Assembly (NCBI GenBank): GCA_963664035.2
Contig: OY760867.2
Location: 3,212,503-3,276,502 of the forward strand
Source of the DNA: Dehalococcoidia bacterium
Lineage (GTDB): Bacteria > Chloroflexota > Dehalococcoidia > Lucifugimonadales > G958296245
DNA length: 64,000 nt
Reading direction: 5' to 3'
Below, piece after piece: positions 17,483 to 33,700 of this stretch (position 1 is the first letter of the stretch; every line of letters begins with the position of its first letter). The notes below the pieces were generated by a model. The model did no database searches, was not told where the DNA came from, and was given only the letters and a program-made list of their open reading frames with translations. The translations under genes were made by a program, and so were the position numbers.

Positions 17483-20400
17483 TCACGCCTCCGTCCATCT
17501 GACAGAGATCCCCAACTGCTCGAACGCCTCGACGATTCTCTGATTCAGAACGTCTTGGGAGATGCCGGCGTCGCTGGTAACCTCTATGGTCACGCTCAAC
17601 TCTGCCCCGGCGTCCTGCTCTTGCAGGACCTTAAACAGGTATGGCTGAAGGTTGTTGGTCTTGGCTACGGCGAGGTCATCGACATCGAGCCTGACCCGCG
17701 TCAGGCGCTTGGGCGGGGGCGGGACCACCTGGTCGCTGATCTTGCGGACAGCCTTACCGTGCTCTTCAGCAGGGGCCTGTTTACTCTCGCTCCCGGTCTC
17801 ATCCTTTTCGCTCCCCGGCTCCTCCGGGCGCAATTCCTCGCGGATGAGCTGAAGCATTTCTCCCTTCACCAGCGAGGCTGAGCCGTCGAAGAGAGTTGCC
17901 AGGCCGTCGACGCCTTCGGGCTTCTCGACCAACGCCTGGTACTTGCTCGTAGCGACATCGCCTATAGCGACGGCCCATAAACCCTGGGAGACGCCCTCCC
18001 GGATGCAGGAGCGAAGGGTCTCCTCCCTATTGGGAAGGATCGGGAGGTAGGTCCATTGGGGAAACCTTCGGCTGGCTTCGGACAAGTCCAGGGCGTCCGT
18101 CTCATCCTTCCACAGGCTCGGAGCGATCTTGGCGTTGAAGTAGACGGCGCCCATCTTCGGAAGCACTTTCGGCGCGCCATAGTCCTGGTCCGAGAGGCGC
18201 TGCACCACTCTTCGCGCAATCTGTTCGCCCGTGGTGGCGGGCACGGGCAGAGACAGCGGCTCCATCCCCTGCTCATCCGGGTAGAACACCCACCTGTAGG
18301 CGGTCGCCACGCTCGTCTTCAGGCTGTCGCGCTTGGCTCTGCTCCGGCTTTCCAGGTCCTTCACTTCGAGGTTGCTGAGGTCGATTGACTTCCTGCCCGC
18401 CGACCCTACAACGGACTCATAGGCCAACACTTCACGGACCGCGTGCTCCGCCCGGCCCCAGAACTCCCTGTCGGGCGCTACAAGCACCAGGGCGTTCCTC
18501 CACTGGCGGAGACCGCCGCCCACCCTGTCCCATAGCTGACGCACCCGTTCCCTATCGGCGCCGGCGGTCGTCCCGCCGTTGCCGGACTCGCCAACGGCGT
18601 ACCTGGGATCCAGCACTGCGACGGCGGGGTCCGGGTTGTCGGGAATCTGGCCGTCCGCGCCCGCCCAGGGGATCACCCTGAACCCGGCAGCCGTCCCGAT
18701 TACTCCGTCAACCTCCGTGCGCAGCCGGTCCGCCACAATGGACTGCGACTGTTCGTCGGCCCTCTGCGCGATCACCCTATAGATGTTTGGACGTGTCTGG
18801 AAGCTGAGCGAATCGCCCTCCCGGTGTACGTACCAGAGCGTCTCCTCCAGCGAGCTCAGGACCTCCGTTACGTACTCGGGGCCGACGTTGGGAGCCACGG
18901 TGCCTAGGCGAAGCTCCTGCGGCGTGCCTCCTCTCCGTTCCATGCCCCCGAACGAGTGCATGAGCACCGTCGTGGCGACTCCCCGCGCGATGTGGAATCG
19001 CGCGTAGTCGCTCCCGCGATTCCGGTCCTGCATGTCGGCGTGGGCGTCTCCGCCAACGATGTCAGCCGCCACCACGCCGTCGTAGCCGCCGCCTGCGCCG
19101 GCGGCGCTGACGATCCGCGTGCGGGTCCGCTCCCGTTCCAGGTCTACGTGCGCCGACTGTATCGCATGGGCCTCGCGCCGGTTGGCCCACTGGTCGGCGA
19201 CCACTCCCGCCAGGAGCTGGAGGGTCGCCCGGGTCCTGGGAAAGTCCGGCGCGGTCGACCACTTCTTGTAGATGACGTCGATCAACTCCGGGTGGAGGGG
19301 ATACGCGGCCCTCTGCTGTTCCAGGTATTCGGGAGTCAGGGCCGCCGCGTCGTACAGCCCCGGCGTCTTCTCATAGACCTGCCTGTACGCGTCCGCGACT
19401 CGCTCCGCTGCTCCGGCGTCCACGCGCTCGAACAGCCGCCTGCGCATGAGCACGTAGATGTCCTCGTCGTTGATGGGCGTCCGCTTGGAGACCACGCGGT
19501 CGGCGCGCGGCTGCAACTCCTCCATGATGCTCAGCTCGTTGCGGAGCTGCTCAGGATCGAGGCCGCCGAACTCACGCCTGCTCTTGGGCAGTGAGATGAG
19601 CACGCAGACGCCGGGAACGTTGCTGGCAAGCTGGAGGGTCTCCTGGAGGAACTGCACCGTCTGCCGGTAGAGGTTTAGCGTGCGGCGGGAGCTGGAGTAT
19701 CTCAGCTTCACGAGGTAGCTGACGATCTCATCGAGCAGGATCAGGCATGGGGACGCCTCCTCCAGCACCTGCCTGAAGACGGCGTTGCCGGGAGCCTCGC
19801 CCCGGCCGTCCGAGTCGATGACCAGCTTGTGGAAGATCCCGACACCCACCTGGTGGGCAAGCTCTCCCCAGAGCGTGTTTACCGACGCGCCATCCTCCTT
19901 CATCGCCGGTTCGCTGCCCGCCTCCTGGCCGTCGAACACCAGCACGCGGGCGCCGGCGGGGATGCGTACTCCGCCCAGCGCCTCCGCGACGGAGGGTATT
20001 TTCGACGCCTCTTGGGGGCTGCCGATCAGGTGGTAGAGCGTCAGGAGGGCGTGGGTCTTGCCGCCGCCGAACGGCGTCTGCACCTCGGTGACAGCGGGCC
20101 CCTGCCCTCCGCTCATCCTACTGGCTATGTCCCGCACCATCTGCGTCAGGTTCTCGGTGAAGTAGGTCTGGGAGAGGAAGCGCTTGGGGTCGAGGTATTC
20201 GTCGCGCGCCGACCCCGCGAAGACGCCGCCGAGGGTGGCCGCGAAGAGCGACTCGTCGATGTGGGCCGGGTCCCGGAAGCCCTCACGAGGCGTACACGCC
20301 TCCCACCAGTACGGAATCTGCCCTTTCGTCGCGGGCATGGCCTCCCGAACCGCGGGAGCCTCTGCCTGCGTCATGCCAAGGACCTGCTTGCGTATCGCCT

Positions 20401-20836
20401 CTACCTCGTCGGCCTCCGGGAGGCCCGCCGGGCGCAAGAGCTGTGCCATGGCGTACAGGGCGTGCCCGACCTCATCGGCGAGCATGTCGCCCGTTCGCGG
20501 GTGCGCCCACGTGTTGCGGGTCTCCCCCACCTGCAGGAGCCACGATTGCGTCTGCTTGAAGTTGTGGTAAGTATCCTCGAAGGCGCGGTCGAAGTTCTTG
20601 GTGACGACGCGCACGAGGTGGCCCGCGTCGAGAAGGTCCGCCCTGTCCGCGCCAGGGTTTCTGTCCAGCTCGCGATTTAGGCCCCGCCTCTGCGGGGTGG
20701 TCATGGCGTCGAGGACGCCGCGCTCCCACCAATGGCCCTTGAATGACGCGGTGAGCCGCTCCTTCACGAGCCTGCGCATGGCGTCGGTGTACAGCTTGAG
20801 GCCGCGCCCCAGGGCCGCGTGGTTGGTCTCGGTCAT
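17483..20836 (-). CDS. HEPN (Swt1-like) - DUF499 P-loop ATPase fusion, 1,117 aa
   Basis: AAGGGA lies 6 nt upstream of the ATG. The helical N-terminal ~150 aa carry the Rx4H motif RNTWAH (20501-20518). The DUF499 signatures are LFAATLGGV, TYFTENL and QTPFGGGKTHALLTLYHL (Walker A, 20051-20074), plus the Walker B-like CLILLDEIVSYL. Confidence 0.8.
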   Translation of the reverse strand: MTETNHAALGRGLKLYTDAMRRLVKERLTASFKGHWWERGVLDAMTTPQRRGLNRELDRNPGADRADLLDAGHLVRVVTKNFDRAFEDTYHNFKQTQSWLLQVGETRNTWAHPRTGDMLADEVGHALYAMAQLLRPAGLPEADEVEAIRKQVLGMTQAEAPAVREAMPATKGQIPYWWEACTPREGFRDPAHIDESLFAATLGGVFAGSARDEYLDPKRFLSQTYFTENLTQMVRDIASRMSGGQGPAVTEVQTPFGGGKTHALLTLYHLIGSPQEASKIPSVAEALGGVRIPAGARVLVFDGQEAGSEPAMKEDGASVNTLWGELAHQVGVGIFHKLVIDSDGRGEAPGNAVFRQVLEEASPCLILLDEIVSYLVKLRYSSSRRTLNLYRQTVQFLQETLQLASNVPGVCVLISLPKSRREFGGLDPEQLRNELSIMEELQPRADRVVSKRTPINDEDIYVLMRRRLFERVDAGAAERVADAYRQVYEKTPGLYDAAALTPEYLEQQRAAYPLHPELIDVIYKKWSTAPDFPRTRATLQLLAGVVADQWANRREAHAIQSAHVDLERERTRTRIVSAAGAGGGYDGVVAADIVGGDAHADMQDRNRGSDYARFHIARGVATTVLMHSFGGMERRGGTPQELRLGTVAPNVGPEYVTEVLSSLEETLWYVHREGDSLSFQTRPNIYRVIAQRADEQSQSIVADRLRTEVDGVIGTAAGFRVIPWAGADGQIPDNPDPAVAVLDPRYAVGESGNGGTTAGADRERVRQLWDRVGGGLRQWRNALVLVAPDREFWGRAEHAVREVLAYESVVGSAGRKSIDLSNLEVKDLESRSRAKRDSLKTSVATAYRWVFYPDEQGMEPLSLPVPATTGEQIARRVVQRLSDQDYGAPKVLPKMGAVYFNAKIAPSLWKDETDALDLSEASRRFPQWTYLPILPNREETLRSCIREGVSQGLWAVAIGDVATSKYQALVEKPEGVDGLATLFDGSASLVKGEMLQLIREELRPEEPGSEKDETGSESKQAPAEEHGKAVRKISDQVVPPPPKRLTRVRLDVDDLAVAKTNNLQPYLFKVLQEQDAGAELSVTIEVTSDAGISQDVLNQRIVEAFEQLGISVRWTEA

Positions 20837-20856: not shown

Positions 20857-21477
20857 TTATGCTATCCGCCACAGCCTGTGCAAGAAATCGCGTACGTGGC
20901 TGAAGGCGCTATCGTCGAGATCCCAATAGCCCCTCTTGGCTGCTACCCCTACCGAGAGATGAGGAGCGGGCTTGGTGGTGAGATAGGCTCGAGCGCGCGC
21001 CTTATCCGAGCGCTCGACGGAATGAGGCAATGCTTCCACGCACCCGAAGAACGTGTTGACGCAGCCATCGATAGGGCTTCCCTCGAAAGTCTCGCACAGA
21101 AGGGTTTCGAGCATACCCGCCCGCCCGCGTCCGGGCAGGATCAATGCCGACACCGCCGGGCTGGACTCGACGCGCTCTCCGGGATTGCTTGGCATGGGTA
21201 GTCCCGCATTCCTGAGCGACGAACGAACACTCTCGAACGCCGACGCGCCGTTTCTCTCCGCGTCCCGAACGATGCCCAGGCTCCTAACAGTGTCACGAAA
21301 CCCCGGCACGTTCACGAGGGCGGCAAGGTAGCCGCGCAGCTCATCCACTCCGCCGAAGTTGTGTATCTGAATACCTGGAAGCGAGAGGTGTTCCGAGAAC
21401 GCCTCGAAGAAGTTGCGCTGGTCGTTTCCTTCTACGAGAAGCTGGATTTCGCTCTCGATGCGTGTCGCCAGCCCCAT
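20857..21477 (-). CDS. Small Toprim-like partner protein, copy 2 (DUF3226/DUF4276/RloB-like class; assignment tentative)
   Basis: MGLATRIESEIQLLVEGNDQRNFFEAF...LGIVRDAERNG... has a conserved acidic E (LLVEG) and a D-A-E pair, as in Toprim-type partners of ABC ATPases. The start is taken at ATG 21477, one nt after the ATPase stop. An alternative start lies at 21498. The track's start at 21522 overlaps the upstream gene by 44 nt. Confidence 0.6.
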   Translation of the reverse strand: MGLATRIESEIQLLVEGNDQRNFFEAFSEHLSLPGIQIHNFGGVDELRGYLAALVNVPGFRDTVRSLGIVRDAERNGASAFESVRSSLRNAGLPMPSNPGERVESSPAVSALILPGRGRAGMLETLLCETFEGSPIDGCVNTFFGCVEALPHSVERSDKARARAYLTTKPAPHLSVGVAAKRGYWDLDDSAFSHVRDFLHRLWRIA

Positions 21478-21478
21478 T

Positions 21479-22537
21479 CTAGCGGACCTCCAACCCATGG
21501 AGCATGGCAGCGCCGATGACATCGGGATAATACGTCACGCAACGGACCGCCGAGTCTGTGGCTTCGAGCCTGTGAAGTCGGAAGGAGTCGGACTCCAATA
21601 ATCCTTGAGCCGCGCCGATGCACTCCAGGCTGTGAGTGGTCGCGAACACCTGGGCGTTGAACTGTCTCGCCGCCGTATCGATGACCTGCCATACCTTTGG
21701 CAGCAAGGTATGGTGGAGCCCATTTTCTATCTCGTCCACCAGTACCAGGCCACCTGGAACGGAAGATATGGCCAGTACGAGCCTGGCGATTCGGGTCATG
21801 CCTTCTCCCATGACGGACAGCGGTATCAACTCCGATAGGCCGACGTCGCCCCAGATCATTGGCTCGCCGCTTGCCGAACTGTCCTCTATGCTCTGCAAGT
21901 TGGGCTCGACTACTCTCAGGGCTTCTAGCAGGAGGTCGCCGCGTTTTTGCTTTCGCAGTGTCCCCAAGCGTACAGCGTCTTCCCGGGCGTTGCCTATTCG
22001 AGATGACAGGATGACCGAATTGAATGGGACCTTGACGTCCGGCTGTGAAATCTCGACACCCTGTCCCTTTGGTCGTATGAAGCCCTCAGCATGAACGCCG
22101 GCCGGCCCGTCGTACCGGAACGTGAGAGCGCGTTCACCGGGAAGGTTTACCATCAAGCCCCCATCGAGTGAAATCTCTGTGGTCTGCGGGCGTTCCGATC
22201 GGATATCCAAGGCCAATTCGCCAAGAGAGGCGTGCAGGCCGGAAATCTCTATCGGACTGTCCAAGTCCAGACCCGAGAAGAACTCCTTCCACTGTGTCTG
22301 ACTTACTGCCGGCGTCATACCTACTGCGGAAAGCCCTATGGACGGCTCGAGCCCTCGCATGATATTGACATTCATCGCGAGTTCTGGATTCCCTGCCCCG
22401 GAAAGTAGGAAGAGCGCCTCCAGCAGGCTGGTCTTCCCAGAGTTGTTCAGTCCGGCGATCAGGTTGACGCGGCTCAACTGATCAATCTCGAGCATCCTGA
22501 GGATGCGGAAATTTCGTATTTGCACTCGCTCAATCAT
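21479..22537 (-). CDS. ABC-type (AAA_21/AAA_15, OLD-N-terminal-like) ATPase, copy 2
   Basis: AAGGAG lies 8 nt upstream. MIERVQIRNFRILRMLEIDQLSRVNLIAGLNNSGKTSLLEAL holds Walker A (22428-22457). Other motifs are MGEGMTRIARL, GGLVLVDEIENGLHH (Walker B) and VFATTHS. Confidence 0.8.
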   Translation of the reverse strand: MIERVQIRNFRILRMLEIDQLSRVNLIAGLNNSGKTSLLEALFLLSGAGNPELAMNVNIMRGLEPSIGLSAVGMTPAVSQTQWKEFFSGLDLDSPIEISGLHASLGELALDIRSERPQTTEISLDGGLMVNLPGERALTFRYDGPAGVHAEGFIRPKGQGVEISQPDVKVPFNSVILSSRIGNAREDAVRLGTLRKQKRGDLLLEALRVVEPNLQSIEDSSASGEPMIWGDVGLSELIPLSVMGEGMTRIARLVLAISSVPGGLVLVDEIENGLHHTLLPKVWQVIDTAARQFNAQVFATTHSLECIGAAQGLLESDSFRLHRLEATDSAVRCVTYYPDVIGAAMLHGLEVR

Positions 22538-22574
22538 CGCCCCACTCCTTCCGGCACAACAAATTATACTTGAT

Positions 22575-25418
22575 TCACCTCTCGCCCTCGAAACCCGGGA
22601 GCATCGGCGGGCCTGCCGCGGGCTGTTCGGGCGGTGGGGCGGCCATGACGCCGCTGCCGAGGAGGCCGAGGATGATGCGGCGGTCCTCGTCGCCGTCGGG
22701 GAGGCACTCCGCGACGGCCTGGCCCAGCGTCCGCAGCGCCGACCAGCGCGTCTCGCCTACCTCGCCGCGGTAGAGCGCCAGCCTGTCGGTCATGTTCTGG
22801 CCCCACAGCCAGGCGGCGCGCTGGAGCCGGTCGATGAGGGGCGCGGGCCGGGCCGGAGAGCCGTAGCCCAGGTCCTCGTCGTCCGCCGCCCGCCGGCGTA
22901 TGGTGCGGAGCTTCACGACCTTCTTGCTCTTCTCACGCGCCTCGGACGCGATGGACTGCGGGCGCGTCATATCGTCGTAGGCCGCGCCGGTCGCCAGGCA
23001 GAGGGCGATGGCCTCGCCCGCGTCCAGCGGCGCCCGCGAGTAGCTCCATACCCACGTTACGTACTGGCGGGTGATCGGGTCCACCATGCCCAGGTCCGCT
23101 CCCTGCAAGACCTGCTCCAGCGCCACAGCCGTCGACTCCCGCCGCACGATGTCCAGGAAGTCGCGCACCGAGACCTCGCTCCCGTCGGGGCGCAGCACGC
23201 GAGCGTGGCGTCCGAAGACCGAGAGCGCGGGGCCGATGGCGCTGATGAAGAAGTCCGCCCCCCGGATGCCCTTGCTCCAGAAATAGAGCAGCCGCTCCCG
23301 GATGACCGGGCGCATGTCGTCCATGACATCGCTGAGGAAGGCATCGCGTGCTTCGCCTTCCCGCTTCCTGCACGCCATCCAGACGGAGGTGGCAAGCCGG
23401 GCCTGACCCAGGCCGGCGACCTTGTTCTGCAACTCGGTATCTATGGGCCAAGAGGCATTGGGGACCAACCCTGCTCCTAGCAGCCCCTCAATGAGGGTTG
23501 ACCAAGCGTCCGGGTCGGTATGGGCGAACACGACGCCCGTAAGCCCTCCGATCTCGAGAGACTGCGACATGGACTGGAAGGCTTGGGCCATACCATCAAC
23601 GTAATGCTGCCTTGCCGCTTCCTTGCGGTTCTTACCCCTTTTGTCCCTGCTGGCGTAGACATTCATTACTATCTGTTCCCTCTTAGGGGTTAAGGGCAGT
23701 CCTAGCAGGTCGGGATACAGGAACCCAATTGAGCGTTTCAGCCAGACGTAGAAGAAGTCAGATAGATCGGCGTAGTTGATGGCATCGTAGTAAGGCGGGT
23801 CTGTAAGGACTGCTCTACAAGTCGTACGGGAATGCGCGGCTCCAACTTGCCGAACCTCACCACGCCATTCGCCTACTATTGCCGCATTCAGCGCCCGGAC
23901 TAATCCAGATAGTAGACTTGTCCAACTACCACCAGCGGCACCGATGGGATTGACCTCGGAGTAATCCCAAACCATCGGTAGCGCTTGCCGGGCCAATGCG
24001 TTGTGAGAACTCTCCACTTCATTGCCCCATCGGGATACGGTAGCATTGTAGTCCGCCAGCTTGTCCACCCCCATCCCCAAGTATGTAGCCACCGCTTTGG
24101 CGTACTCAGTGTCCAAACCCTCTCTGAGCATCTGCATATGGGACTCACCCACTAGGCGAGCGAAGGTCGTCAGGGCTAGCAATTGACGTGAGCTGAAAAT
24201 CTCCGCAAAAGTCTCAATCCCGTAACCTCTGCCAGCTACCGTCTCCGGCCCCTTGGACATTGGTTCATCGGGCAGTAGGGAAGGGTCTCCATTGTGGCTT
24301 GCCAATCTCTCAGCGATACGCGCCACAGTCCTGTGGAACGTCTCTTGGTCATCGTCTGAGTCTTCCCGGTAAAATTTACCGGACCCCTTGCTTTCCAAGA
24401 CCACCGCCGTCATAGTCGCGCCCATCTTTCCTTGAGTGGATAGCCGCCGAACATCCGCGCCCTTCACCACCTGCTCACACAGCAGGCATCTGGTGTCACC
24501 GCGCGATGTAGTGGCCTGCGCGGGGTTGCCGGTCACATCAGCCCCCTCCACGACCTCGAAGTCCACGCGGTTGTTGTCCTGGTCTATGTTCGGCTTCAGC
24601 GCCACTCGCTTCTTTGGTTTCCGCGCCAGCCAGTACTGGCGGATGAGTGGCATCTCGGCGTCGCAGTTTGGGCACGGGATGGTGCGGCTCCACAGGTACG
24701 CGACCGGCACGCTGCCGTCGGGGTCTGGGGGGTAGAACTCGGCCAGCTCCTCCCGCGCCCGCTCCAGCATCCAGTTGCCCCAGTAGCGCACGTCCGTCGC
24801 CAGGGGGTTGCGGCGGTATGCCTCGGCAAGGTTGCCGTCGGCAAAGCTGGACTGGGAGTCGTCGGCGTCCGCCTCCAGGATGTATCCGGGCGCGGGCCTG
24901 CTGTCGGGCTGTCCGTACCGCTGGGGATACTCAACGGTGCCCTTGAGGATGAGGACGGCGACGGGGTTGAGGTCGCTTGCCTCGACCTCGCAGCCGAGGC
25001 GCAGGCCCTCCAGGGGGATGGCGCCGCCGCCCGCGAAGGGGTCGAGCAGCTTTGGCGGCCTGCCGCCGTTGTCGTCGAGGATTCGGCGCCGCGCCCGCTC
25101 CAGCAACTCTGTCCCGGTGAGGCCGCTGCCGCCGTCGTCCTTCGTACGCACGACCCTTTCGGGGTGGCGCACGGCGTCCCAGCTTGCGAGGTCGGCGACC
25201 TCCTTCAGCAGCTCCTCGCGCTCGGCCTCCGTCTCAGGGTCGTCCACCAGCGAGGCGTATATGAAGGCGCGACAGGCCGCCAGCGGCCGCCGCGCCCACC
25301 AGATGTGCAGCGTCGAGATATGCCCATGCCGCACGTTCTTCTCCCGTCGCGAGTGCGCCGACACCTCCTCCAACGGGAAGGCGACTTCGATGAGCCGCTT
25401 CCGGCGCTGGGAAGTCAT
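22575..25418 (-). CDS. DUF1156-family DNA methyltransferase with Zn-ribbon (DPPY catalytic motif), 947 aa
   Basis: The internal ATG at 25418 (ATGA overlap with the upstream stop) gives MTSQRRKRLIEVAFPLEEVSAHSRREKNVRHGHISTLHIWWARRPLAACRA, the DUF1156 signature. The SAM motif LLDPFAGGGAIPLEG is at ~25011-25050. The Zn-ribbon is CPNC (24660-24680) plus CLLC (24470-24499). The catalytic motif is TDPPYY (23790-23801). Confidence 0.85.
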   Translation of the reverse strand: MTSQRRKRLIEVAFPLEEVSAHSRREKNVRHGHISTLHIWWARRPLAACRAFIYASLVDDPETEAEREELLKEVADLASWDAVRHPERVVRTKDDGGSGLTGTELLERARRRILDDNGGRPPKLLDPFAGGGAIPLEGLRLGCEVEASDLNPVAVLILKGTVEYPQRYGQPDSRPAPGYILEADADDSQSSFADGNLAEAYRRNPLATDVRYWGNWMLERAREELAEFYPPDPDGSVPVAYLWSRTIPCPNCDAEMPLIRQYWLARKPKKRVALKPNIDQDNNRVDFEVVEGADVTGNPAQATTSRGDTRCLLCEQVVKGADVRRLSTQGKMGATMTAVVLESKGSGKFYREDSDDDQETFHRTVARIAERLASHNGDPSLLPDEPMSKGPETVAGRGYGIETFAEIFSSRQLLALTTFARLVGESHMQMLREGLDTEYAKAVATYLGMGVDKLADYNATVSRWGNEVESSHNALARQALPMVWDYSEVNPIGAAGGSWTSLLSGLVRALNAAIVGEWRGEVRQVGAAHSRTTCRAVLTDPPYYDAINYADLSDFFYVWLKRSIGFLYPDLLGLPLTPKREQIVMNVYASRDKRGKNRKEAARQHYVDGMAQAFQSMSQSLEIGGLTGVVFAHTDPDAWSTLIEGLLGAGLVPNASWPIDTELQNKVAGLGQARLATSVWMACRKREGEARDAFLSDVMDDMRPVIRERLLYFWSKGIRGADFFISAIGPALSVFGRHARVLRPDGSEVSVRDFLDIVRRESTAVALEQVLQGADLGMVDPITRQYVTWVWSYSRAPLDAGEAIALCLATGAAYDDMTRPQSIASEAREKSKKVVKLRTIRRRAADDEDLGYGSPARPAPLIDRLQRAAWLWGQNMTDRLALYRGEVGETRWSALRTLGQAVAECLPDGDEDRRIILGLLGSGVMAAPPPEQPAAGPPMLPGFEGER

Positions 25419-26047
25419 GCCGTTTCTTCGGGCTGGAAGAAAAGCCGCCTCAGCCACGAAACGAGAACGTCGGCTTGAGGCAGATTCGGATCGAGGAAGC
25501 GGGCCGTAATGGCAGTACCGTAGGGCAAGCCAGGCTCCGACTGCCATGCGAGCCAGGTGTGAATGACCGCCTTGGGCCTGTCATTGTCTTTGAAACGCTG
25601 CTCTGGGACCGAATCTACGCTGGCGGCCGCGTGGTCGAGGAGCGCGTCCCGTTGCGGAACCATGAAACGGAGAAAGTCCTCCAGGATTCCTGGGGTCTTG
25701 TTATCCGGCATTATCCAGACGCCTACCCTTGGTAGATCCGATTGGCGCTCCAATACCGTTTCATCAGTATCTGGCGCTTCCGGCACATTCTTGTATCCGA
25801 TCTGCATGAGCCGTTCACGAATGGACTGCCAGCGGGCGTCCAAGTTGGTATCCGCGTCGATTACCACGCCAACAACGTCTCCCTCCTCGGCGAACCGGAG
25901 TCTGGTGGGAATGCTCTCTAGCAAGCCGGGGGCGCCGCCATGAGTGGCGACCTCGTCCAGAAGCGGAAGGTCTCTATTGCCGCAGATATGCTTCAGGACG
26001 TGTTCGTCGTCTTTGTCCTCCACCAGCAATATCCTCAGGTTGGCCAA
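25415..26047 (-). CDS. Small Toprim-like partner protein, copy 1 (DUF3226/DUF4276/RloB-like class; assignment tentative)
   Basis: A TTG start lies 2 nt after the ATPase stop. (M)ANLRILLVEDKDDEHVLKHI...VVGVVIDADTNLD... has the same E ... D-x-D layout as copy 2, but the rest of the sequence is diverged. Confidence 0.6.
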   Translation of the reverse strand: MANLRILLVEDKDDEHVLKHICGNRDLPLLDEVATHGGAPGLLESIPTRLRFAEEGDVVGVVIDADTNLDARWQSIRERLMQIGYKNVPEAPDTDETVLERQSDLPRVGVWIMPDNKTPGILEDFLRFMVPQRDALLDHAAASVDSVPEQRFKDNDRPKAVIHTWLAWQSEPGLPYGTAITARFLDPNLPQADVLVSWLRRLFFQPEETA

Positions 26048-26049
26048 GG

Positions 26050-27180
26050 TCAGCGCACCTCTATGCGGTGGCGCGTTGCGATGGCTAGCTCATCTTCGTC
26101 TGCCACAACTGGGATAATGTCGTCGCCTCTGCGGGTAAGGCGTAGAAGCGCCCCCTCTTCAGGGGACTCGGCCGCGGCCTCCTGGAAGGACTTCACTACA
26201 TCCTGGCTGTGGGTCGCGGCGAAGACCTGGACGTCAAGCTCCTGGGCCAGCCGGAATATCATGCGCCAGACGTCCAACTGCACGGAGTGGTGCAGGCCGT
26301 TCTCGAACTCGTCGATCAACAGGACCCCGCCGCGAGCGTTGACGATGGACAGGGTTATGGCGAACAGGCGGTTTATGCCGTCTCCAAACGAGCGCAGAGG
26401 AACGGGTCGCCCAAAGCTCTCGGAGCGCACTATCGCCGTTCTCATCCTGGAAGACCCATCGCCGGCGATCATCGTGACGGCGGAGAGTCTCGGATCGACG
26501 ATTCGCAGCGCTTCGACCACGTCTTTTTCGTTGTCCGTTAGCGCGACTTCCGCCCAGAGACGTTCCAGCGCGTTCGTCTCCTCCCCGGCGTAGGGACTGA
26601 CGTGTATGCAGGGCATCCGCACCCTGTCGGACGACCTGGGGCGAGGCATCCGGTTCGAGCGCGCATAGCGGAGAAATCGCTCCAAGCGATATAGCTGCCT
26701 TCCATCTTCCGTCTCGACTACCAGCGCGGCTAAGTATCCAGGTTCCCAGCCGGGCGAGTCTTCGCGCATGACCAGCCTTATGCGTCCCTCAGAGTCCTCC
26801 TCCTCGGCGAACCAATCCAGCCGCATCATTAGCTTCGTAGGGCCAGTTCCGCCGTTCGTCGAGATGACGATTGGGGCGAAGTCATCCGAGAGCCTGGGAA
26901 ATCCGTTGAACATGGCGGAAATCTGGAACAGGCTCTCGGGGTCTGAGGAGCGCTCCTCTTCATCCGCCTCCCCGAGGTGCTCTTCGCGGGATCTGAGGAT
27001 ATCGTGTATGAGATCAGGGGCGGCGTTGTGCGTGTATATGCGCAGCGCTTCGAGAATCGAAGACTTCCCGGTGTTGTTCTTTCCCGTGATCAGGGTGACG
27101 CGGCCCAGCCTCGGGATCGAGAGGTCCTTGATCCCGCGATAGCCCTGGATCGAAAGGTCAGGAAACTGCAAATCGCTCAT
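26050..27180 (-). CDS. ABC-type (AAA_21/AAA_15, OLD-N-terminal-like) ATPase, copy 1
   Basis: The internal ATG at 27180 (ATGA overlap with the helicase stop) gives MSDLQFPDLSIQGYRGIKDLSIPRLGRVTLITGKNNTGKSSILEAL, with Walker A at 27061-27090. Other motifs are FGDGINRLFAI, GGVLLIDEFENGLHH and VFAATHSQD. The track's 66-codon N-terminal extension is Arg/Gly-rich junk overlapping the helicase. Confidence 0.8.
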   Translation of the reverse strand: MSDLQFPDLSIQGYRGIKDLSIPRLGRVTLITGKNNTGKSSILEALRIYTHNAAPDLIHDILRSREEHLGEADEEERSSDPESLFQISAMFNGFPRLSDDFAPIVISTNGGTGPTKLMMRLDWFAEEEDSEGRIRLVMREDSPGWEPGYLAALVVETEDGRQLYRLERFLRYARSNRMPRPRSSDRVRMPCIHVSPYAGEETNALERLWAEVALTDNEKDVVEALRIVDPRLSAVTMIAGDGSSRMRTAIVRSESFGRPVPLRSFGDGINRLFAITLSIVNARGGVLLIDEFENGLHHSVQLDVWRMIFRLAQELDVQVFAATHSQDVVKSFQEAAAESPEEGALLRLTRRGDDIIPVVADEDELAIATRHRIEVR

Positions 27181-30100
27181 TCCTCCCGCTCCTTTCCATT
27201 GGCCGGACGGCTCGCGGCCCTCAACTCCTCCGAATCGACGTGATACTCCACCACGCGCTCCGTGGCCTTGACCCCCTTCCCCACCGGGTCCTGGATTATC
27301 CAGAGCTCCGGCTCGGCGAGGGCGTGGTCCACCTCGTAGATGAAGAACTCGCCGCGCATCCGGTGGGCCAACTGCCACTCGGTATAGTATAGGGTAACGC
27401 CGCCGGTCGCGGCGTGTCCCTTCACCTCGATGTAGCGGACGGCGCCGTCCGGCCCGTCGCTCCGTATGTCGCAGCCCACGCCGGTCTTCGACACGTCCCT
27501 GGGGTCGCGGCCCTGCGCGGCCTCGTAGTCCATGGCGACCTTCATGGCGGCCATCTCGACGGTCGTGTTGTCGCCGCCTCGCCCCTCCTCGCGCACCCTG
27601 GGCACTGGGCCTGGGACCACGGCGGCCACGCCGACGACCCTGGGCGTGCGTATGGACGTGACCCTTCTGCGCTGAAGCTCCTCGCGCCGCCGTCTCAGGT
27701 CGGCCGTCAGAGTCTCGATCTGCTCGTTGGTGGTGCGGATGGCGATCCGCATGTCCCTACCCCCGGCCTCCTCCTCGTGCTGGCGTTCGAGCCGGCCCTG
27801 GAGCTCCGAGAGGTTGTCGTTGGCCGACTGCTGGAGGGCGCGCTCGACTATGCCCGCCTGCCGCTCCTGCTCGGCGGTGACCTCGGCCAGGTACTCCTCC
27901 GAATAGAGGCGGCTCGCGGCGGCGACCGCGCCGTCTCCCTCGGCCAGGCCCTTCAGGGAGTCTGGGGCGGCGGGGGCCACGTCGGAGGGGGGCAGGTCGA
28001 GGAGCACACCGGGCGTAACCGGCTCGAACTCGGCGCCGCGCTGCCTGAGCGCGAGCAGCCGCCCGTGTACCTCTTCCCCGACGCCGTTGACGACCGCGAC
28101 CTCCAGGAGCCACACGAGATAGGGGCCGCGCGCCTCCTTGTCCACGAAGACGGTCCCCCTGGCGAGCCGGGGCCGCCCCAGGTCGAGGAGGCGGCCCATG
28201 ACCGCATCGAAGAGCGGGTGGTTGGGCGCGACGAATTCGGCGGGCGGGTCGCGCCGGAGACGATCCTTGCTGAAGGTGATCAGCCGGCCAGCGGCCCCGA
28301 GCTCTCCCGCGTTGCCGGCCTGCGCTCCCCGGCGGATGTCGGCGGGAACGAAGTCGAGCCGCCAGTCGCTATCGGCGCCGGGCGTAATGCGGCCGTCGAG
28401 GTACCGTAGGCCGTCGACGAAGAACCGTTCCACGAACTCGGGCGTCAGCCGCCGCTCCTTCGAGTCGCGCTCGTCGCCGAGTATGGAGGCCATGTCGACG
28501 TGGGACGTCGCGAGGGCTTCGCCCAGGGCGTCACGCGCGGCGGCAACCGACGCGGAGCCGTCCACGAACTCGAGGTCGCCGAGGATGTCGTCCATGGAGC
28601 GGCGGTTCAGAATCGCCTCGCGGATCAGCGCGTCCAGGCGGACCTGCCCGGCGTCGAGGACGCTCGACACGACGTCGTACACCTGGTCGTGGCCGAGCTG
28701 CTCGCGCATCCGCTCCAGCTTCTCCATCAGGCGAACGAGCACGGAGCCTTCCCGCGTGGTGTTGGCCACGAGATTCACGACCTCGACCTCGTACTCCTGG
28801 CCGTAGCGGTGTATCCGTCCCATCCTCTGCTCCAGCCGATTCGGGTTCCACGGCAGGTCCCAGTTGATCATCACCTTGCAGAACTGGAGGTTGATGCCCT
28901 CGCCGGCGGCTTCCGTGGCGACCATGAACTGGGCCGGGCCGCGAAACTCCTTCTCGGCCCCTATGCGGTCGGCAAGCTTCATCCCGCCGTGGATGTTGCA
29001 GACGCTGTAGCCCCACTCCCTCAGTTGTCTGGTCAGGTAGGTCAGCGTGTCGCGGTGCTCGGTGAAGACCAGTATCTTCTCGTTGCGGTCGGCGACGGTC
29101 TGGCTCTCGATGACGCGGCGGAACTCGCCCAGCTTGCGCTCCGGCCCCCCGCGCCGCGTCGCATCGGCCAACGCTATCAGGTCGTCGAGCCTGGCTATCT
29201 CGGCGCGCAGGTCTTCGGGTGTCCGCGCGGTGGACGCGCCGGACAGGGCCTCTTCCTCTTCGGCCGTCAGCTCGTCGAGGTCGTCCTCTTCCGGGTCGTA
29301 TTCGATGCTCATCGCTCGCTGCTTGGAGCGACCCGACCGGCCGGCTTGTTCAAGCTCCTCGGTCAGGCGGTCGCGCCGCCGCTCCAGGCTGCGCGTAACG
29401 GCGTAGAGCGAGGATGCGAGGCGGCGCTGGAGGACGATGAGCGCGAGCGTGACGTTCCGGTTCCCGGCCTCCTCAGCCTGGGCGAGGCCCTCGGACACGT
29501 AGCTTGTCACGGCGTCGTACAGCCTCTGTTCGCGCGGCTCAAGCTCGTACGCCATCGTGTCCACGTGGCGGGGCAGGAAGAGCGGCCTGCCGTCGAAGTG
29601 CTTCATCGACTCCTTCATCCGGCGCAGGAAGTAGGGCGAGCCGTCCTTGTCGAGGACGCTCTTGGCCCCCTCCTCGGACGCGAACACCTTCTCGTCGAGA
29701 AGCGAAAGAAGCAGCCGGAAGTTCTCAGGGTCTCCCTTGTGGGGCGTCGCCGTCATCAACAGCAGGTGCTTGGCGCTGGCGGCCAGCCGCTCGGCCAGCA
29801 CGTAACGCTTGGTCTTGTCTATCTTCCGCCCGTAGCGATAGGCCGAGAGTTTGTGGGCCTCGTCGAAGATGATGAGGTCCCACCGCGACTGCTCGACTCC
29901 TGGGAGGATGTGGTCCTGGATAGCCAGGTCGACGGAGGCAACCACGAGGTCGTTCTCGACCCACGCGTTCTGCCCGAAGCTGCCGGAGATGAGGTCGCCC
30001 GTGACGAGCACGAACGGCTCTCTGAAGCGCTCCCACATCTCCCGTCGCCACTGGTCGGTCAAAGCCTTGGGACATAGCACCAGGACCCGGGAGACCTCCC

Positions 30101-30554
30101 CGCGCTGCATCAGCTCGCGCATGAGGAGGCCCGCCATGATGGTCTTGCCCGCGCCGGGGTCGTCCGCCAGTAGGAAGCGGATGCGGGGCAGCGGCAGGAT
30201 GTGGCCGTAGACGGCATCGAGCTGGTGGGGCAACGGATCGACCTGCGACACGGACACGGCGAACTGTGGGTCGAAGGCGTGGGCCATGTGTGTCCGCAGC
30301 GCTTCCACGGCCAGTCGGAACAGGCGAGGCTCGGCGTCGAAGGTGTGCGTTCCCCCGGCGACCTCGGTGACCTGGGCGCTTACCTGGTCGGCCGGGATCG
30401 TCCGGTCATAGTACTGGGAGTCGACAACACCAACCGCCTCGATCCGAACGGCTGAGCCGTGCTCGCCCACACGAATGACGCGCACGGGTCCGGGCCAGAA
30501 CGGACCCTCGATGACGGTATCGGGCTGAAGAGAGGATGCAGACGGAGAAGCCAT
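27177..30554 (-). CDS. SNF2-family helicase fused to C-terminal DUF3883 (PD-(D/E)xK-like) nuclease domain, 1,125 aa
   Basis: Motif I is LLADDPGAGKT (~30138-30167) and motif II is DLIIFDEAHKL (~29846-29872). Motif III is LLMTATPHKG. Motifs V/VI are EGINLQFCKVMINWDLPWNPNRLEQRMGRIHRYGQ. The C-terminus reads AMKVAMDYEAAQGRDPRDVSKTGVGCDIRSDGPDGAVRYIEVKGHA...FFIYEV (~27250-27560). Confidence 0.85.
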   Translation of the reverse strand: MASPSASSLQPDTVIEGPFWPGPVRVIRVGEHGSAVRIEAVGVVDSQYYDRTIPADQVSAQVTEVAGGTHTFDAEPRLFRLAVEALRTHMAHAFDPQFAVSVSQVDPLPHQLDAVYGHILPLPRIRFLLADDPGAGKTIMAGLLMRELMQRGEVSRVLVLCPKALTDQWRREMWERFREPFVLVTGDLISGSFGQNAWVENDLVVASVDLAIQDHILPGVEQSRWDLIIFDEAHKLSAYRYGRKIDKTKRYVLAERLAASAKHLLLMTATPHKGDPENFRLLLSLLDEKVFASEEGAKSVLDKDGSPYFLRRMKESMKHFDGRPLFLPRHVDTMAYELEPREQRLYDAVTSYVSEGLAQAEEAGNRNVTLALIVLQRRLASSLYAVTRSLERRRDRLTEELEQAGRSGRSKQRAMSIEYDPEEDDLDELTAEEEEALSGASTARTPEDLRAEIARLDDLIALADATRRGGPERKLGEFRRVIESQTVADRNEKILVFTEHRDTLTYLTRQLREWGYSVCNIHGGMKLADRIGAEKEFRGPAQFMVATEAAGEGINLQFCKVMINWDLPWNPNRLEQRMGRIHRYGQEYEVEVVNLVANTTREGSVLVRLMEKLERMREQLGHDQVYDVVSSVLDAGQVRLDALIREAILNRRSMDDILGDLEFVDGSASVAAARDALGEALATSHVDMASILGDERDSKERRLTPEFVERFFVDGLRYLDGRITPGADSDWRLDFVPADIRRGAQAGNAGELGAAGRLITFSKDRLRRDPPAEFVAPNHPLFDAVMGRLLDLGRPRLARGTVFVDKEARGPYLVWLLEVAVVNGVGEEVHGRLLALRQRGAEFEPVTPGVLLDLPPSDVAPAAPDSLKGLAEGDGAVAAASRLYSEEYLAEVTAEQERQAGIVERALQQSANDNLSELQGRLERQHEEEAGGRDMRIAIRTTNEQIETLTADLRRRREELQRRRVTSIRTPRVVGVAAVVPGPVPRVREEGRGGDNTTVEMAAMKVAMDYEAAQGRDPRDVSKTGVGCDIRSDGPDGAVRYIEVKGHAATGGVTLYYTEWQLAHRMRGEFFIYEVDHALAEPELWIIQDPVGKGVKATERVVEYHVDSEELRAASRPANGKEREE

Positions 30555-30748: not shown

Positions 30749-33700
30749 CTACTGGTCCTGGTCTTCGCCGCGCCTTCGGCGTCTGGCCGCAAGGAAGAGG
30801 ACCGCGGATGCCAATACGCCTATGGCGACGGCCACGGCTAGGAGCGCCGGCCACGCCAGCGGCGCCGGGGCGTCCCGGTCCACCGGCGCTCCCGGTGCGG
30901 CGGTCGGCTCCACGGCCGGCCCGGCGGTGGGAGTCGGCTCGGGCGTAGGCGTAGGCGTGACCGCAAGCGCCAACTCCGGCTCCGGCGTGGCCGTAGCTGT
31001 CGGCTCGGGCATGGGCGTGGGAGTAGGCTCCGGCGTGGCCGTAGCTGTCGGCTCAGGTGTGGGCGTGGGAGTAGGCTCCGGCGTGGGCGTAGCTGTCGGC
31101 TCAGGTGTGGGCGTGGGAGTAGGCTCCGGCGTGGGCACGGCTGTCGGCTCAGGTGTGGGCGTGGGAGTAGGCTCCGGCGTGGGCGCGGGTGTCGGCGCGG
31201 GAGTAGGCTCAGGCGTGGGCGCGGGTGTCGGCTCAGGCGTAGGCTCGGGCGTCGGCGCGGGTGTCGGCTCAGGCGTGGGCTCAGGCGTAGGCCCAGGCGT
31301 GGGCGCGGGCGTCGGCTCAGGCGTCGGCTCGGGTGTGGGCGCGGGCGTCGGCTCAGGCGTGGGTTCCGGTGTGGGCGCGGGCGTCGGCTCCGGCGTGGGC
31401 TCGGGCGTGGGCTCAGGCGTGGGCTCGGGCGTCGGCTCAGGCGTGGGCTCGGGCGTCGGCTCAGGCGTCGGCTCAGGCGTCGGCTCGGGCGTCGGTGTTG
31501 GTGTCGGCGTTGGCGTCGGCGTTGGCGTTGGCGTCGGCTCAGGCGTGGGTATGCGACCAAGCCCAGGCCTTGGTCTGGGATCGGGCTCTTCTATCACAGG
31601 AGGAGGCGCGGCGATGACCTCGCCCACCGTGACCGTCCCGATGGATATGCCGTGGTAGCCGGGGTCATGGCTGTGGGCGGTGTGCTCGACGGTGACCCCA
31701 TTGCGCGAGCCGATGTGTTCGCTGCCTGCGGTGATTCTGACGGTCTTCGCCTCGTTCCAGTCGTCGGGGGTGAAGAAGACGAGCGAGGGACTCGCCGTCA
31801 CGTCGCGGTCGCCGGTGACGTCTACCTTCACCACCACGTCGCTGGTGGGCCGCTCGTTGACGAGGACGATGGTGTAGGTGACGAACCTGCCTCCCTGCAC
31901 CTCGTCTATCTGCTCGGTGGATAGCTCCACGCCCCGGGTATTGACCACGGCGAACCCGGAAGGGTTGCCGTCGGCGGGGGACTTCACCACTGAGTTGACG
32001 GCCCGGACCTGGAACCCGTAGGAGTTCAGCGTGTCCAGGCCGTTGACGACGGCCTCGCGGGCATCGGCCCCGCCGGACACCGTCTTCCACGACGTGGGGG
32101 CTGTGCCGGCGCCATAGGATCGCTGCCGGTATTCCCATCCGGTGATGGTGGAGTCAGCGGGGCTGGGGTCGTCCCACGTGAGCCTGGAGGTCCCCAGATC
32201 CGTTCCGTTGCCGGCGGCAAAGTTTCGCGGTGGGGCCGGAGGCGTGACGGCGATGTTTTCGGTGGTCAGCTGGTTGATGGTGGCCGGGCCCGCTCCCGCC
32301 GTGTTCACCGCCCGAAGCTGGAAGCTGTAGGTCTGGCCTCGGTCCAGGTTGGTCACGGTGTATTCGGTCCTGGGCACGAGGGTGACGTTGGCCGGGGCCG
32401 CGCCGTCCGCGCCCGCCGCCGCCGAGGTGGTCTGCTCCACCATTGCGGAGATGTCCTTCCACCCCGTGTTGGTGGGCGGCGTCACCGTCGCCTCGTCCGT
32501 CGGCGGGTACGTCACGGTCTGCACAATGGGCCGCACTTCCACGGTGCAGACCTGGCTGGCTGGCGGCTGCCCGACGGGCGCGCACGTCGCGGTGTAGGAC
32601 GTGGTGGTTGCGCTGCTGCCCTGTATGTCCGCCCATCTGCCGAAGCTGCCCGTTCCCGTCTTCTGGCGGTACTGGTACTTCCGGATGGTGGCGTCCTGCG
32701 GGTCGTCCCAGGTGAGCGTCGTCCGATTATTGCCGGCGTTGAAAGCCGTGAACGTCCACGATGCATGGGCTTCCAGCGGGAACTCGACGTTCTTGATCCG
32801 CTTCACGGGGGCGACCTGGAAGAGGTACTCCTTGTCCGCGGCCAGTCCGCTGACCTTGTAGGACCTGATGGCGCCGTCGATATAGCCGCAGCAGCCGCCC
32901 AGGTACACCGTCGTGTCGGCTTGAGGCTGGGCGGAGAGCCTCACACTCACGTTCTGCGCCGTGTTCCAGTTGCCGGCGGTGAAGGTGAGCGTGGAGCGGC
33001 TGAAGACCACGCCGTCCATCGATAGCCTGACTCTTACGGTGGCGGCGGGCCTGGAGGCCAGCTTGACGCCGACGGTCTGGTTCGTGTTCCAGTTGCCGGT
33101 GGTGAAGGTGAGCGTGGACGAGCTGAAGTCCGGGCTGGTCGCGATGTCCGTCCATCCGCCCTCGACGGTCCCCGCTACGAAGTTCGACGTCGTGCCGCTG
33201 GGGGGCGTTGCCGTGGCCACGTCCGAGGCCGGGTGTACCACCGGGCGCACCTCCACCAGGCAGACCCGCCCGGTGGAGCATGAAACGTCCCAGGACGTGG
33301 TCGCTTCGTCGCTGGAGGGTATGTTCGTCCAGCTGTTGAAGCTGCCCGTTCCCGTCTTCTTCCGGTACTGGTACTTCACGACGTGGTTGTTGTTGGGATT
33401 GGCCCAGGTGAGCGTCGTCTTGTTGTTGCTGGCTGTGTAGGCGGTGAAGCTCCACGGCCCCACGGTCGTCACGATCATGCCGCTCTGCGACACGCCGCGT
33501 ATCTCGAAGGCGTACTCCGTGCCGTCGGCCAGGCCCGTCGCCCCGTAGGAGGTGGTGGACGACCCGCTGTTGGTTATATCCGTCCAGGCGCCGAAGCTGC
33601 CCGCTCCCGTCTTCTGGCGGTACTGGTACTTGTCGATAAAGCTGTTGTTCGGGTTGGCCCAGTACAGGGTGACCCGCCCGTTGGAGCCGATGTTGCCGAT

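Follow-up and report, generated by a model that had tools for sequence, protein, structure and literature searches.

Two diverged ABC ATPase–DUF3226 pairs, probably captured separately, at the internal junctions of a Dehalococcoidia Hma operon

Introduction

Hma (helicase–methylase–ATPase) systems are defined by three genes and have since been renamed type-1 BREX-related (BR) systems (PMC12839542). A variant in which the DUF499 ATPase is fused to a HEPN domain is common in type-1 BR systems and has been reported from 1370 taxa (PMC12839542). Modules that combine an ABC ATPase with a TOPRIM, NERD or PIN protein have been described as nested between hma genes, with a backup rationale in the style of PrrC and PARIS (Payne et al, 2024, bioRxiv 10.1101/2024.01.29.577857), and OLD-ABC/nuclease modules occur in at least 1242 BREX/BR taxa, for which a guard or backup idea is discussed as well (PMC12839542). 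Both the embedding of ABC ATPase/Toprim modules in Hma and the guard/backup idea are already published (Payne et al, 2024; NAR 2026 gkag035). Here, we analyse a 64,000-nt stretch from a Dehalococcoidia bacterium of the Chloroflexota (assembly GCA_963664035.2, contig OY760867.2, positions 3,212,503 to 3,276,502 of the forward strand), referred to below as the window. Seven co-directional genes on its minus strand (30554-17483) form a single operon, which is probably an Hma operon with two separately captured, autonomous modules, each composed of an ABC ATPase and an OLD-like DUF3226 protein and each occupying one internal junction.

Results

An Hma operon with an ATPase–DUF3226 pair at each internal junction

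The backbone of the operon is recognised by the PADLOC models for HmaA (E-value, E, 3.5e-205), HmaB (E 2.9e-143) and HmaC (E 2.7e-123). According to Pfam, HmaA comprises SNF2-rel_dom, Helicase_C and NOV_C domains, HmaB a DUF1156 domain, and HmaC a HEPN_Swt1 domain together with DUF499. The SNF2 helicase, the DUF1156 N6-methyltransferase and the DUF499 ATPase are co-oriented and arranged in the order A–B–C, as is characteristic of Hma or type-1 BREX-related systems. Judged by this gene content, the locus is an Hma phage-defence operon of the type-1 BREX-related, DUF499-centred kind. An initial annotation, made by a model from the DNA and its translated open reading frames (ORFs), had located two ATPase–partner pairs inside a restriction–modification-like system, and the PADLOC assignment to Hma agrees with this placement. 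The motifs and coordinates that it quoted for both pairs were all correct when ORFs and translations were checked.

Pair 1 lies between HmaA and HmaB and pair 2 between HmaB and HmaC, and in each an ABC ATPase is followed by a small partner (ATPase-1 with DUF3226-1, or D1; ATPase-2 with DUF3226-2, or D2). Pfam matches to AAA_15 and AAA_21 in both ATPases, and to DUF3226 in both partners, bear out the proposed combination of an ABC-type ATPase with a partner protein. Both ATPases display the ABC layout, in which an N-terminal Walker A motif is followed, in the C-terminal part, by a signature-like motif, Walker B (DE) and the H-loop; each of these motifs is intact. Walker A reads GKNNTGKSS in ATPase-1 and GLNNSGKTS in ATPase-2, Walker B GGVLLIDEFENGLHH and GGLVLVDEIENGLHH, the H-loop VFAATHS and VFATTHS, and the C-terminus IEVR and LEVR, respectively. 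Both ATPases are predicted to be competent.

Among the PADLOC models, PDC-M38A and AbiLi cover most or all of the two window ATPases. ATPase-1 matches each of them over its full length (E 3.7e-88 and E 2.4e-58, respectively), and ATPase-2 matches AbiLi at E 1.8e-51 and PDC-M38A at E 5.2e-50. The AriA, GajA, PtuA, Old and HEC-01A models of the same collection gave partial matches only, and the sequence neighbours in the PDB (OLD, RecF, Rad50 and ABC transporters) all had marginal E-values. Between the two ATPases, identity amounts to 33% in the C-terminal 156 aa (E 3e-21) and to 39% in the N-terminal 64 aa, and similarity was not detectable across the ~150 aa in the middle; their partners are 24% identical (E 6e-9). 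The view that the pairs share their architecture while being strongly diverged is thus upheld.

The DUF3226 partners are predicted OLD-like Toprim nucleases

The small partners carry the motifs LLVED...DAD (DUF3226-1) and LLVEG...DAE (DUF3226-2). Pfam DUF3226 matches the former at E 4e-63 and the latter at E 1e-22, and the PADLOC model PDC-M38B, which matches DUF3226-1 at E 5.4e-51, reaches only a borderline E of 4.7e-5 (21 bits) with DUF3226-2. No model for either protein was found in NCBIfam or PHROGs. The DUF3226 family comprises 6072 clusters at 50% identity, and almost all of its 150 best-scoring representatives are ~200-230 aa long. One protein in the representative library (P0361, 443 aa) has twice the usual length and two matched stretches, and may be a tandem DUF3226 fusion.

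AlphaFold2 (AF2) models of both proteins were built from a 40-sequence alignment spanning both subfamilies. In each, an N-terminal beta-alpha-beta-alpha-beta-alpha-beta core leads into a helical half, with a predicted local distance difference test score (pLDDT) of 75.9 and a predicted template modelling score (pTM) of 0.71 for DUF3226-1, and of 77.6 and 0.77 for DUF3226-2. When the two models were independently compared to the PDB with Foldseek, the first rank went in both cases to class 2 OLD proteins, matched in their C-terminal region (Toprim plus helical) with a probability of 1.00. The top matches of DUF3226-1 were 6NJW, 6NJV and 6NJX, the C-terminal region of Xcc OLD (E 4.9e-4 to 9.1e-4, template modelling (TM) score 0.45-0.50), and Burkholderia 6NK8 ranked seventh (E 0.031, TM 0.46). 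The top four of DUF3226-2 were 6NJX, 6NJV, 6NJW and 6NK8 (E 5.7e-5 to 3.4e-4, probability 1.00). Across both models, the three Xcc structures gave TM-scores of 0.41-0.50, and 6NK8, at rank 4, gave 0.51-0.53 with DUF3226-2. Matches to AriB (E 0.07-0.16, TM 0.25-0.29) and to retron Eco2 were much weaker than those to OLD.

In sequence searches, neither DUF3226-1 nor the 40-sequence profile found a meaningful match among all PDB chains, so that the relation to OLD is seen solely by fold and by weak family-level Pfam matches. For the latter, we examined 100 diverse DUF3226 members, each representing one 50%-identity cluster: 21 of them also match Pfam OLD-like_TOPRIM (best E 6e-6), 5 match DUF4435, and 1 matches RloB (E 0.035).

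The same 100 members reveal a strongly conserved set of residues (D1 numbering). E10, E123 and K159 are present in 100% of them, D64 in 99% and G38 in 86%, and position 66 is D, N or E. DUF3226-1 features E10, D13, D64-A-D66, E123 and K159, and DUF3226-2 features E16, D19, D72-A-E74, E124 and K159; the family-conserved catalytic-site positions are all kept in both window proteins. Hallmarks of the Toprim superfamily are a parallel sheet of four strands alternating with helices, an invariant Glu after strand 1, a conserved Gly after strand 2 and a DxD after strand 3; the predicted secondary structures and the conserved E10, G38, D64 and D/N/E at position 66 agree with them. The active site of Burkholderia OLD includes the Toprim Glu E400, the DxD residues D455 and D457, the metal-B Glu E508, with which the helical domain begins, and K562 as the catalytic Lys (PMC6755086). 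By position relative to the predicted strands, E10 would correspond to E400, D64/D66 to D455/D457, E123 to E508 and K159 to K562. Together, the OLD-type Foldseek matches of both proteins and the invariant E, D-A-D/E, E and K residues support the initial description of the partners as Toprim-like, in agreement with the OLD-like_TOPRIM matches elsewhere in the family. We predict that DUF3226 is what the Toprim-plus-helical nuclease region of class 2 OLD enzymes looks like as a detached, stand-alone protein.

The two pairs belong to separate, autonomous lineages

To follow the two lineages outside the window, we compared 80 species-representative genome loci with D1-type proteins and 15 metagenome loci with D2-type proteins. 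An ATPase-1-type gene is located directly upstream of the partner in 78 of the 80 D1-type loci, the modal gap being the stop codon plus 1 nt; the two exceptions are a locus that ends at the contig end (L018) and one that carries a partial D1 (L067). Likewise, an ATPase-2-type gene is present in every D2-type locus whose upstream region is included. Given this consistent partnering, the lineages co-evolve as separate cognate pairs. No D2-type pair was found within 10 kb of any of the 80 D1-type loci.

Hma genes are found at only 4 of the 47 D1-type loci that have at least 4 kb on both flanks, and the neighbour genes of L001 and L002 are ordinary and unrelated. The ATPase–DUF3226 lineages are widespread, autonomous and mostly stand-alone. 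The initial proposal had linked the pairs specifically to the methyltransferase, a notion that does not hold: over 90% of the well-flanked pair 1 relatives lie outside any Hma locus, and close Hma relatives hold other cargo in these slots.

Each pair has relatives elsewhere that are much closer than its neighbour in the operon, with identities of 60-84% per pair as opposed to 24-33% between the window pairs. The top 120 relatives of each small partner share 60-77% identity with it, and the D1 and D2 subfamilies are 21-27% identical to one another. ATPase-1 is 84% identical to its nearest relative, which belongs to a stand-alone pair of a Dehalococcoidia metagenome-assembled genome (MAG; L003), and ATPase-2 is 81% identical to the ATPase of L098, which occupies the same HmaB/HmaC slot. 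The closest relatives come from Dehalococcoidia/Chloroflexota MAGs. Both lineages can be present in one genome at separate places, as on a 5.93-Mb contig (P0111 and P0208) and on OZ242361.1 (L011 and P0201). Moreover, the Hma-embedded D1-type pairs (those of L042, L051, L054, L055, L072 and the window) do not group together, each having its nearest relative outside Hma (for window pair 1, L003 at 79%); this implies that one and the same slot, HmaA/HmaB, has captured such pairs repeatedly.

No nucleotide-level repeat exists between pair 1 and pair 2, so that the initial annotation was right to exclude a recent copy; of the two origins that it left standing, an old duplication or independent captures, the latter is preferred. 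Overall, these observations strongly favour the entry of the pairs as two independent captures. A second locus with both pairs was not found among the 80 genome loci, the 15 loci from metagenomes and the 4 closely related Hma loci, of which L098 is too short to tell. In viral contigs, D1 had no more than two relatives, both distant (35-36% identity), and D2 had none, indicating that the modules are not typically phage-borne.

The junctions of related Hma loci hold different cargo

Close Hma backbones (75-90% identity) differ in the cargo that they carry, which is pair 1 only in L101, pair 2 in L098 and HTH-M78/DUF4411 in L099. The L101 locus comprises, with identities to the window in brackets, HmaA (90%), ATPase-1 (82-85%), D1 (68%), HmaB (79%), an unrelated opposite-strand ORF and HmaC (86%). 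L098 is a short contig with HmaB (87%), ATPase-2 (81%), D2 (77%) and HmaC (83%), the pair 1 region being outside. In L099, an HTH/Peptidase_M78 gene and a DUF4411 gene separate HmaA (85%) from HmaB (79%), HmaC (75%) follows, and both pairs are absent. A more distant Hma locus, L051, harbours pair 1 in slot 1, and a PHP-ABC ATPase with an AlbA_2-like gene in slot 2. Both Hma junctions behave as cargo hotspots.

The individual cargo genes are diverse. In L099/L100 (8289-9954), the cargo consists of an HTH_3/Peptidase_M78 gene and a DUF4411 gene; in L051 (13556-17485), it encodes an 897-aa PHP-plus-ABC-ATPase protein and a 406-aa AlbA_2-like protein; and the opposite-strand ORF of L101 (5766-6887, 373 aa) has no Pfam match. 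In L101, the closest Hma relative with pair 1, the ATPase (859-1985) is divided into two ORFs (212 and 140 aa), whose products are 82-85% identical to ATPase-1; this reflects either a frameshift, and thus decay, or an assembly error in a contig of 2.6x coverage. In L090/L091 (5959-13274), a D2-type pair immediately precedes HmaB, and an HmaC-like gene lies upstream on the opposite strand; D2-type pairs are therefore not confined to the HmaB/HmaC slot. A further variation concerns the methyltransferase itself: four proteins that are 70-78% identical to HmaB (P0243, P0247, P0267 and P0314) are ~240 aa longer and have an N-terminal PF08719 (NADAR/DUF1768) domain fused to the DUF1156 methyltransferase.

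Gene junctions, base composition and surroundings

The genes of the operon are listed in Table 1. Longer upstream starts (GTG 27378, ATG 25547 and ATG 21522) were dropped in favour of the shorter ones because the homologues align from the latter.

Table 1. Genes and spacer of the window operon (window positions; functions of pair proteins as predicted).
Feature	Coordinates	Strand	Basis or remark
HmaA, SNF2-type helicase with C-terminal NOV_C (DUF3883-like) domain	27177..30554	-	Operon gene 1; PADLOC, Pfam
ABC ATPase-1, 376 aa from ATG, predicted sensor of pair 1	26050..27180	-	Pfam, PADLOC
DUF3226-1 (D1), 210 aa, TTG start, predicted OLD-like Toprim nuclease of pair 1	25415..26047	-	
HmaB, DUF1156 N6-adenine DNA methyltransferase, 947 aa	22575..25418	-	PADLOC, Pfam
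AT-rich spacer HmaB/ATPase-2, 37 nt: TATAAT, then GGAAGGAG ribosome-binding site	22538..22574	-	Read from sequence
ABC ATPase-2, 352 aa, predicted sensor of pair 2	21479..22537	-	Pfam, PADLOC
DUF3226-2 (D2), 206 aa, predicted OLD-like Toprim nuclease of pair 2, divergent subfamily	20857..21477	-	
HmaC, DUF499 ATPase with N-terminal Swt1-like HEPN domain	17483..20836	-	Last operon gene; PADLOC, Pfam

The translational coupling proposed for the pairs holds only in part. At pair 1, the HmaA stop overlaps the ATPase-1 start, and the DUF3226-1 stop the HmaB start codon, in ATGA sequences; pair 2 is separated from HmaB by 37 nt and from HmaC by 20 nt, with own ribosome-binding sites for ATPase-2 and HmaC. 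Within the pairs, ATPase and partner genes are spaced by 2 nt (pair 1) and 1 nt (pair 2). The HmaB/ATPase-2 spacer is AT-rich against the 67% GC of the genome and may represent an internal promoter or the scar of pair 2 insertion. A promoter and terminator scan, which did not call this spacer, gave no more sites than in shuffled sequence.

The GC content at third codon positions changes in steps, from 0.68-0.76 in the four pair genes to 0.80-0.89 in the hma genes and 0.92-0.93 in the flanking host genes. This gradient suggests an acquired island carrying later-acquired inserts, and the steps fit with nested, separate acquisitions. No tRNA genes are present in the whole window, and neither flanking repeats nor an obvious integrase marking the insertion of the pairs or the island were found in the part examined (about 14-34 kb).

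Immediately before the first gene of the operon, an uninterrupted 10,995-aa ORF with a TTG start and many repeated modules occupies 30749-63736 on the minus strand. Near the C-terminus of its product (DNA 30882-31495, with a 12/24-nt period), a long P/T/E-rich repeat is followed by a hydrophobic, anchor-like segment, and the product looks like a giant surface protein.

Discussion

A proposed mechanism and its alternatives

By analogy with PARIS, OLD and HEC modules, the ABC ATPase of each pair would act as sensor and regulator, with the variable middle insert setting the trigger specificity. Upon a phage cue, the ATPase could release, activate or recruit its cognate two-metal Toprim nuclease, which would otherwise be held in check, and the activated DUF3226 protein might then cleave nucleic acid, either DNA or tRNA. 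Infection would then end abortively, or the module would back up Hma as a second defence line, and two diverged pairs would provide two trigger specificities and thus a wider trigger range. The data themselves bear on the gene architecture, the predicted fold, the conservation of catalytic residues, module autonomy and independent capture; the regulation of an effector by a sensor, the substrate and a link to the inhibition of Hma are features that we infer from these analogues.

Several points weigh against our interpretation of the locus. The confidence of the AF2 models is medium (pLDDT 76-78, and ~50-65 in the helical half), with TM-scores of only about 0.5; for this reason, the equivalence of E123 and K159 to E508 and K562 of OLD is derived from sequence position and not from a superposition. 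The DUF3226/PDC-M38 family is a bioinformatic candidate only, and our literature search found no paper mentioning DUF3226 or PDC-M38. HEC-01, which among the tested systems comes closest to the pairs, did not protect against any of the phages used (bioRxiv 10.1101/2024.01.29.577857). Finally, the tight integration into the operon, with ATGA overlaps to HmaA and HmaB, would equally be expected of an integral subunit.

Among the alternatives, the pairs could be selfish passengers of a permissive slot, either addiction-like (of a toxin/antitoxin type) or inactive, that have no defence role in the host. Such a status would be compatible with the diversity of cargo in the Hma junctions (HTH-M78 with DUF4411, PHP-ABC ATPase with an AlbA_2-like gene, or the opposite-strand ORF), with the lack of defence by HEC-01 as a tested ATPase+TOPRIM module and with the split ATPase of L101. 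We nevertheless consider it unlikely, as the catalytic and ATPase motifs are all intact in both window pairs, both lineages are strongly conserved across phyla (60-77% for the top 120 relatives of each partner), unrelated pair 1 lineages have been captured repeatedly into the HmaA/HmaB slot, and 7 of 9 tested Hma-embedded candidates did defend (bioRxiv 10.1101/2024.01.29.577857).

A guard function, in which the trigger is the inhibition of Hma, can be inferred by analogy, and in its most specific form it would make the pairs dedicated guards rather than interchangeable passengers: pair 1 would physically monitor the HmaA–HmaB interface and pair 2 the HmaB–HmaC interface, and each would fire its Toprim nuclease once its part of the complex was disabled by a phage inhibitor. 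This idea draws on the repeated capture of unrelated pair 1 lineages in the HmaA/HmaB slot and on the translational coupling of pairs to Hma genes, and we give it little credence in this dedicated form. If it were true, Hma and two paralogous guards would constitute an immune operon with two layered sensors, and among OLD-type nucleases DUF3226 would form a new, stand-alone branch whose trigger is defined.

Alternatively, the pairs might be integral restriction effectors, with Hma sensing unmethylated DNA and the pairs acting as the nuclease, as MAD3 and MAD4 appear to do in MADS. The seven co-directional genes with their ATGA overlaps or short spacers are in line with such a role. In MADS, mad3, which encodes an ATPase of the same general class, and mad4 are required for defence, and deletion of mad5, a gene of the methylase side, is possible only together with that of mad2 or mad3 (bioRxiv 10.1101/2023.03.30.534895); weak N-terminal MAD3 matches are present in both window ATPases. 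However, these matches reach 38 bits versus a curated cut-off of 420, and mad4 has no match at all. Hma already contains domains that are candidates for an effector (NOV_C in HmaA, HEPN in HmaC), type-1 BR/Hma is defined as a three-gene system, the closest Hma relative found, L099, has neither pair, and the great majority of well-flanked pair 1 relatives, as noted above, reside outside Hma. An integral function is therefore improbable.

Lastly, an ancient tandem duplication within the operon, followed by divergence in place, would account for the similar architecture and motifs of the pairs and for their shared composition of DUF3226 and an AbiLi-like ATPase, but it was rejected as scarcely credible, given that pairs in other phyla are much closer (ATPases up to 84% and 81%, partners 73-77%) than the neighbour pair (24-33%), that the lineages occur separately, stand-alone and at different loci of shared genomes, and that related Hma loci hold one pair without the other.

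Under the reading that we prefer, an Hma operon with two separately captured autonomous modules, DUF3226, an uncharacterised Pfam family of about 6000 50%-identity clusters, gains a predicted role as a detached OLD-like nuclease half that is always partnered with its own ABC ATPase. The kind of arrangement has been described before, and the locus provides a new example and an experimental entry point, not a new principle. Mildly new are the assignment of DUF3226 at the level of fold and motifs, the second DUF3226/ATPase lineage, and the simultaneous occupation of both Hma slots by the two lineages. With two diverged modules in one Hma operon, and close relatives that carry one, the other or neither, the locus forms a natural test bed. 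This set of variants is suited to two questions, namely whether embedded modules guard their host system and whether the variable ATPase inserts determine trigger specificity.

Comparison with known systems

The best structural match of both DUF3226 models is class 2 OLD of Burkholderia and Xanthomonas (6NK8, 6NJW), whose E, DxD, E and K residues have putative equivalents in the window proteins; among PDB chains, no significant sequence match to OLD structures was obtained. OLD combines the ATPase and Toprim parts in one polypeptide, whereas here and in nearly all related loci they are encoded by split ORFs. Class 2 OLD also has a neighbouring UvrD-like helicase, in contrast to the window operon, which lacks a UvrD-like gene and in which the pairs precede HmaB and HmaC. 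Similarly, Gabija consists of the ATPase–Toprim fusion GajA and the UvrD-like helicase GajB; the GajA model matches the window ATPases only weakly and partially (E ~1e-15), and a GajB-like gene is absent.

PARIS shares the two-gene split, with the sensor ABC ATPase AriA and the Toprim effector AriB (DUF4435). The AriA models match parts of the window ATPases (E 1e-20 to 1e-27; best 7.5e-27, over the C-terminal ~110 aa), but the window DUF3226 proteins have no match to AriB/DUF4435 even at E up to 10. Membership in PARIS or OLD, which the initial annotation had considered, is consequently not borne out, either by the partner family or by the separation of ATPase and nuclease in two proteins. 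PARIS nonetheless offers a mechanistic template, in that its nuclease is released or activated by the phage anti-restriction protein Ocr and cleaves tRNA. PrrC in EcoprrI, an ABC-type ATPase module within a methylation-based restriction operon, is the classic example of a guard that an anti-restriction peptide sets free; it is a single protein with an anticodon-nuclease domain, unlike the two-gene pairs of the window.

The two-gene abortive-infection system AbiL of Lactococcus resembles the pairs in its ATPase, as the AbiLi model matches both window ATPases end to end or nearly so. Its partner AbiLii is RloB-like, whereas the window partners belong to DUF3226 and match no AbiLii or RloB model. 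MADS, in which MAD3 and MAD4 are needed for defence, comprises eight different genes, with MAD6-8 as mandatory and the MAD3 ATPase and MAD4 as accessory components, and no component besides MAD3 gave a match; the MAD3 matches to the window ATPases are weak and N-terminal (PADLOC 1e-11; NCBIfam 38 bits versus a cut-off of 420). On this evidence, the pairs are not members of PARIS, OLD, Gabija, AbiL or MADS.

In their setting, the pairs resemble HEC-01 to HEC-04, which are likewise ABC ATPase plus nuclease modules nested among hma genes, HEC-01 being an ATPase with a separate TOPRIM protein, and the OLD-ABC/TOPRIM auxiliary modules of BREX/BR systems (PMC12839542); the rationale of a backup or guard against anti-restriction is shared with them. 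The window ATPases are recognised by the HEC-01A models only weakly (E 1e-12 to 1e-16), and the HEC B-component models do not recognise the DUF3226 proteins, so that the window pairs belong to a different family. The closest PADLOC family is PDC-M38, a purely bioinformatic candidate. Our literature search found no description of two PDC-M38-type pairs in one host system. Pair 1 matches the A and B models over their full length and shares with PDC-M38 both the gene order and the DUF3226 partner. For pair 2, the A models give E 5e-50 and the B models only E 4.7e-5. Based on these model matches, pair 1 is PDC-M38, and pair 2 is a sister DUF3226/ATPase lineage that the PDC-M38B models barely detect.

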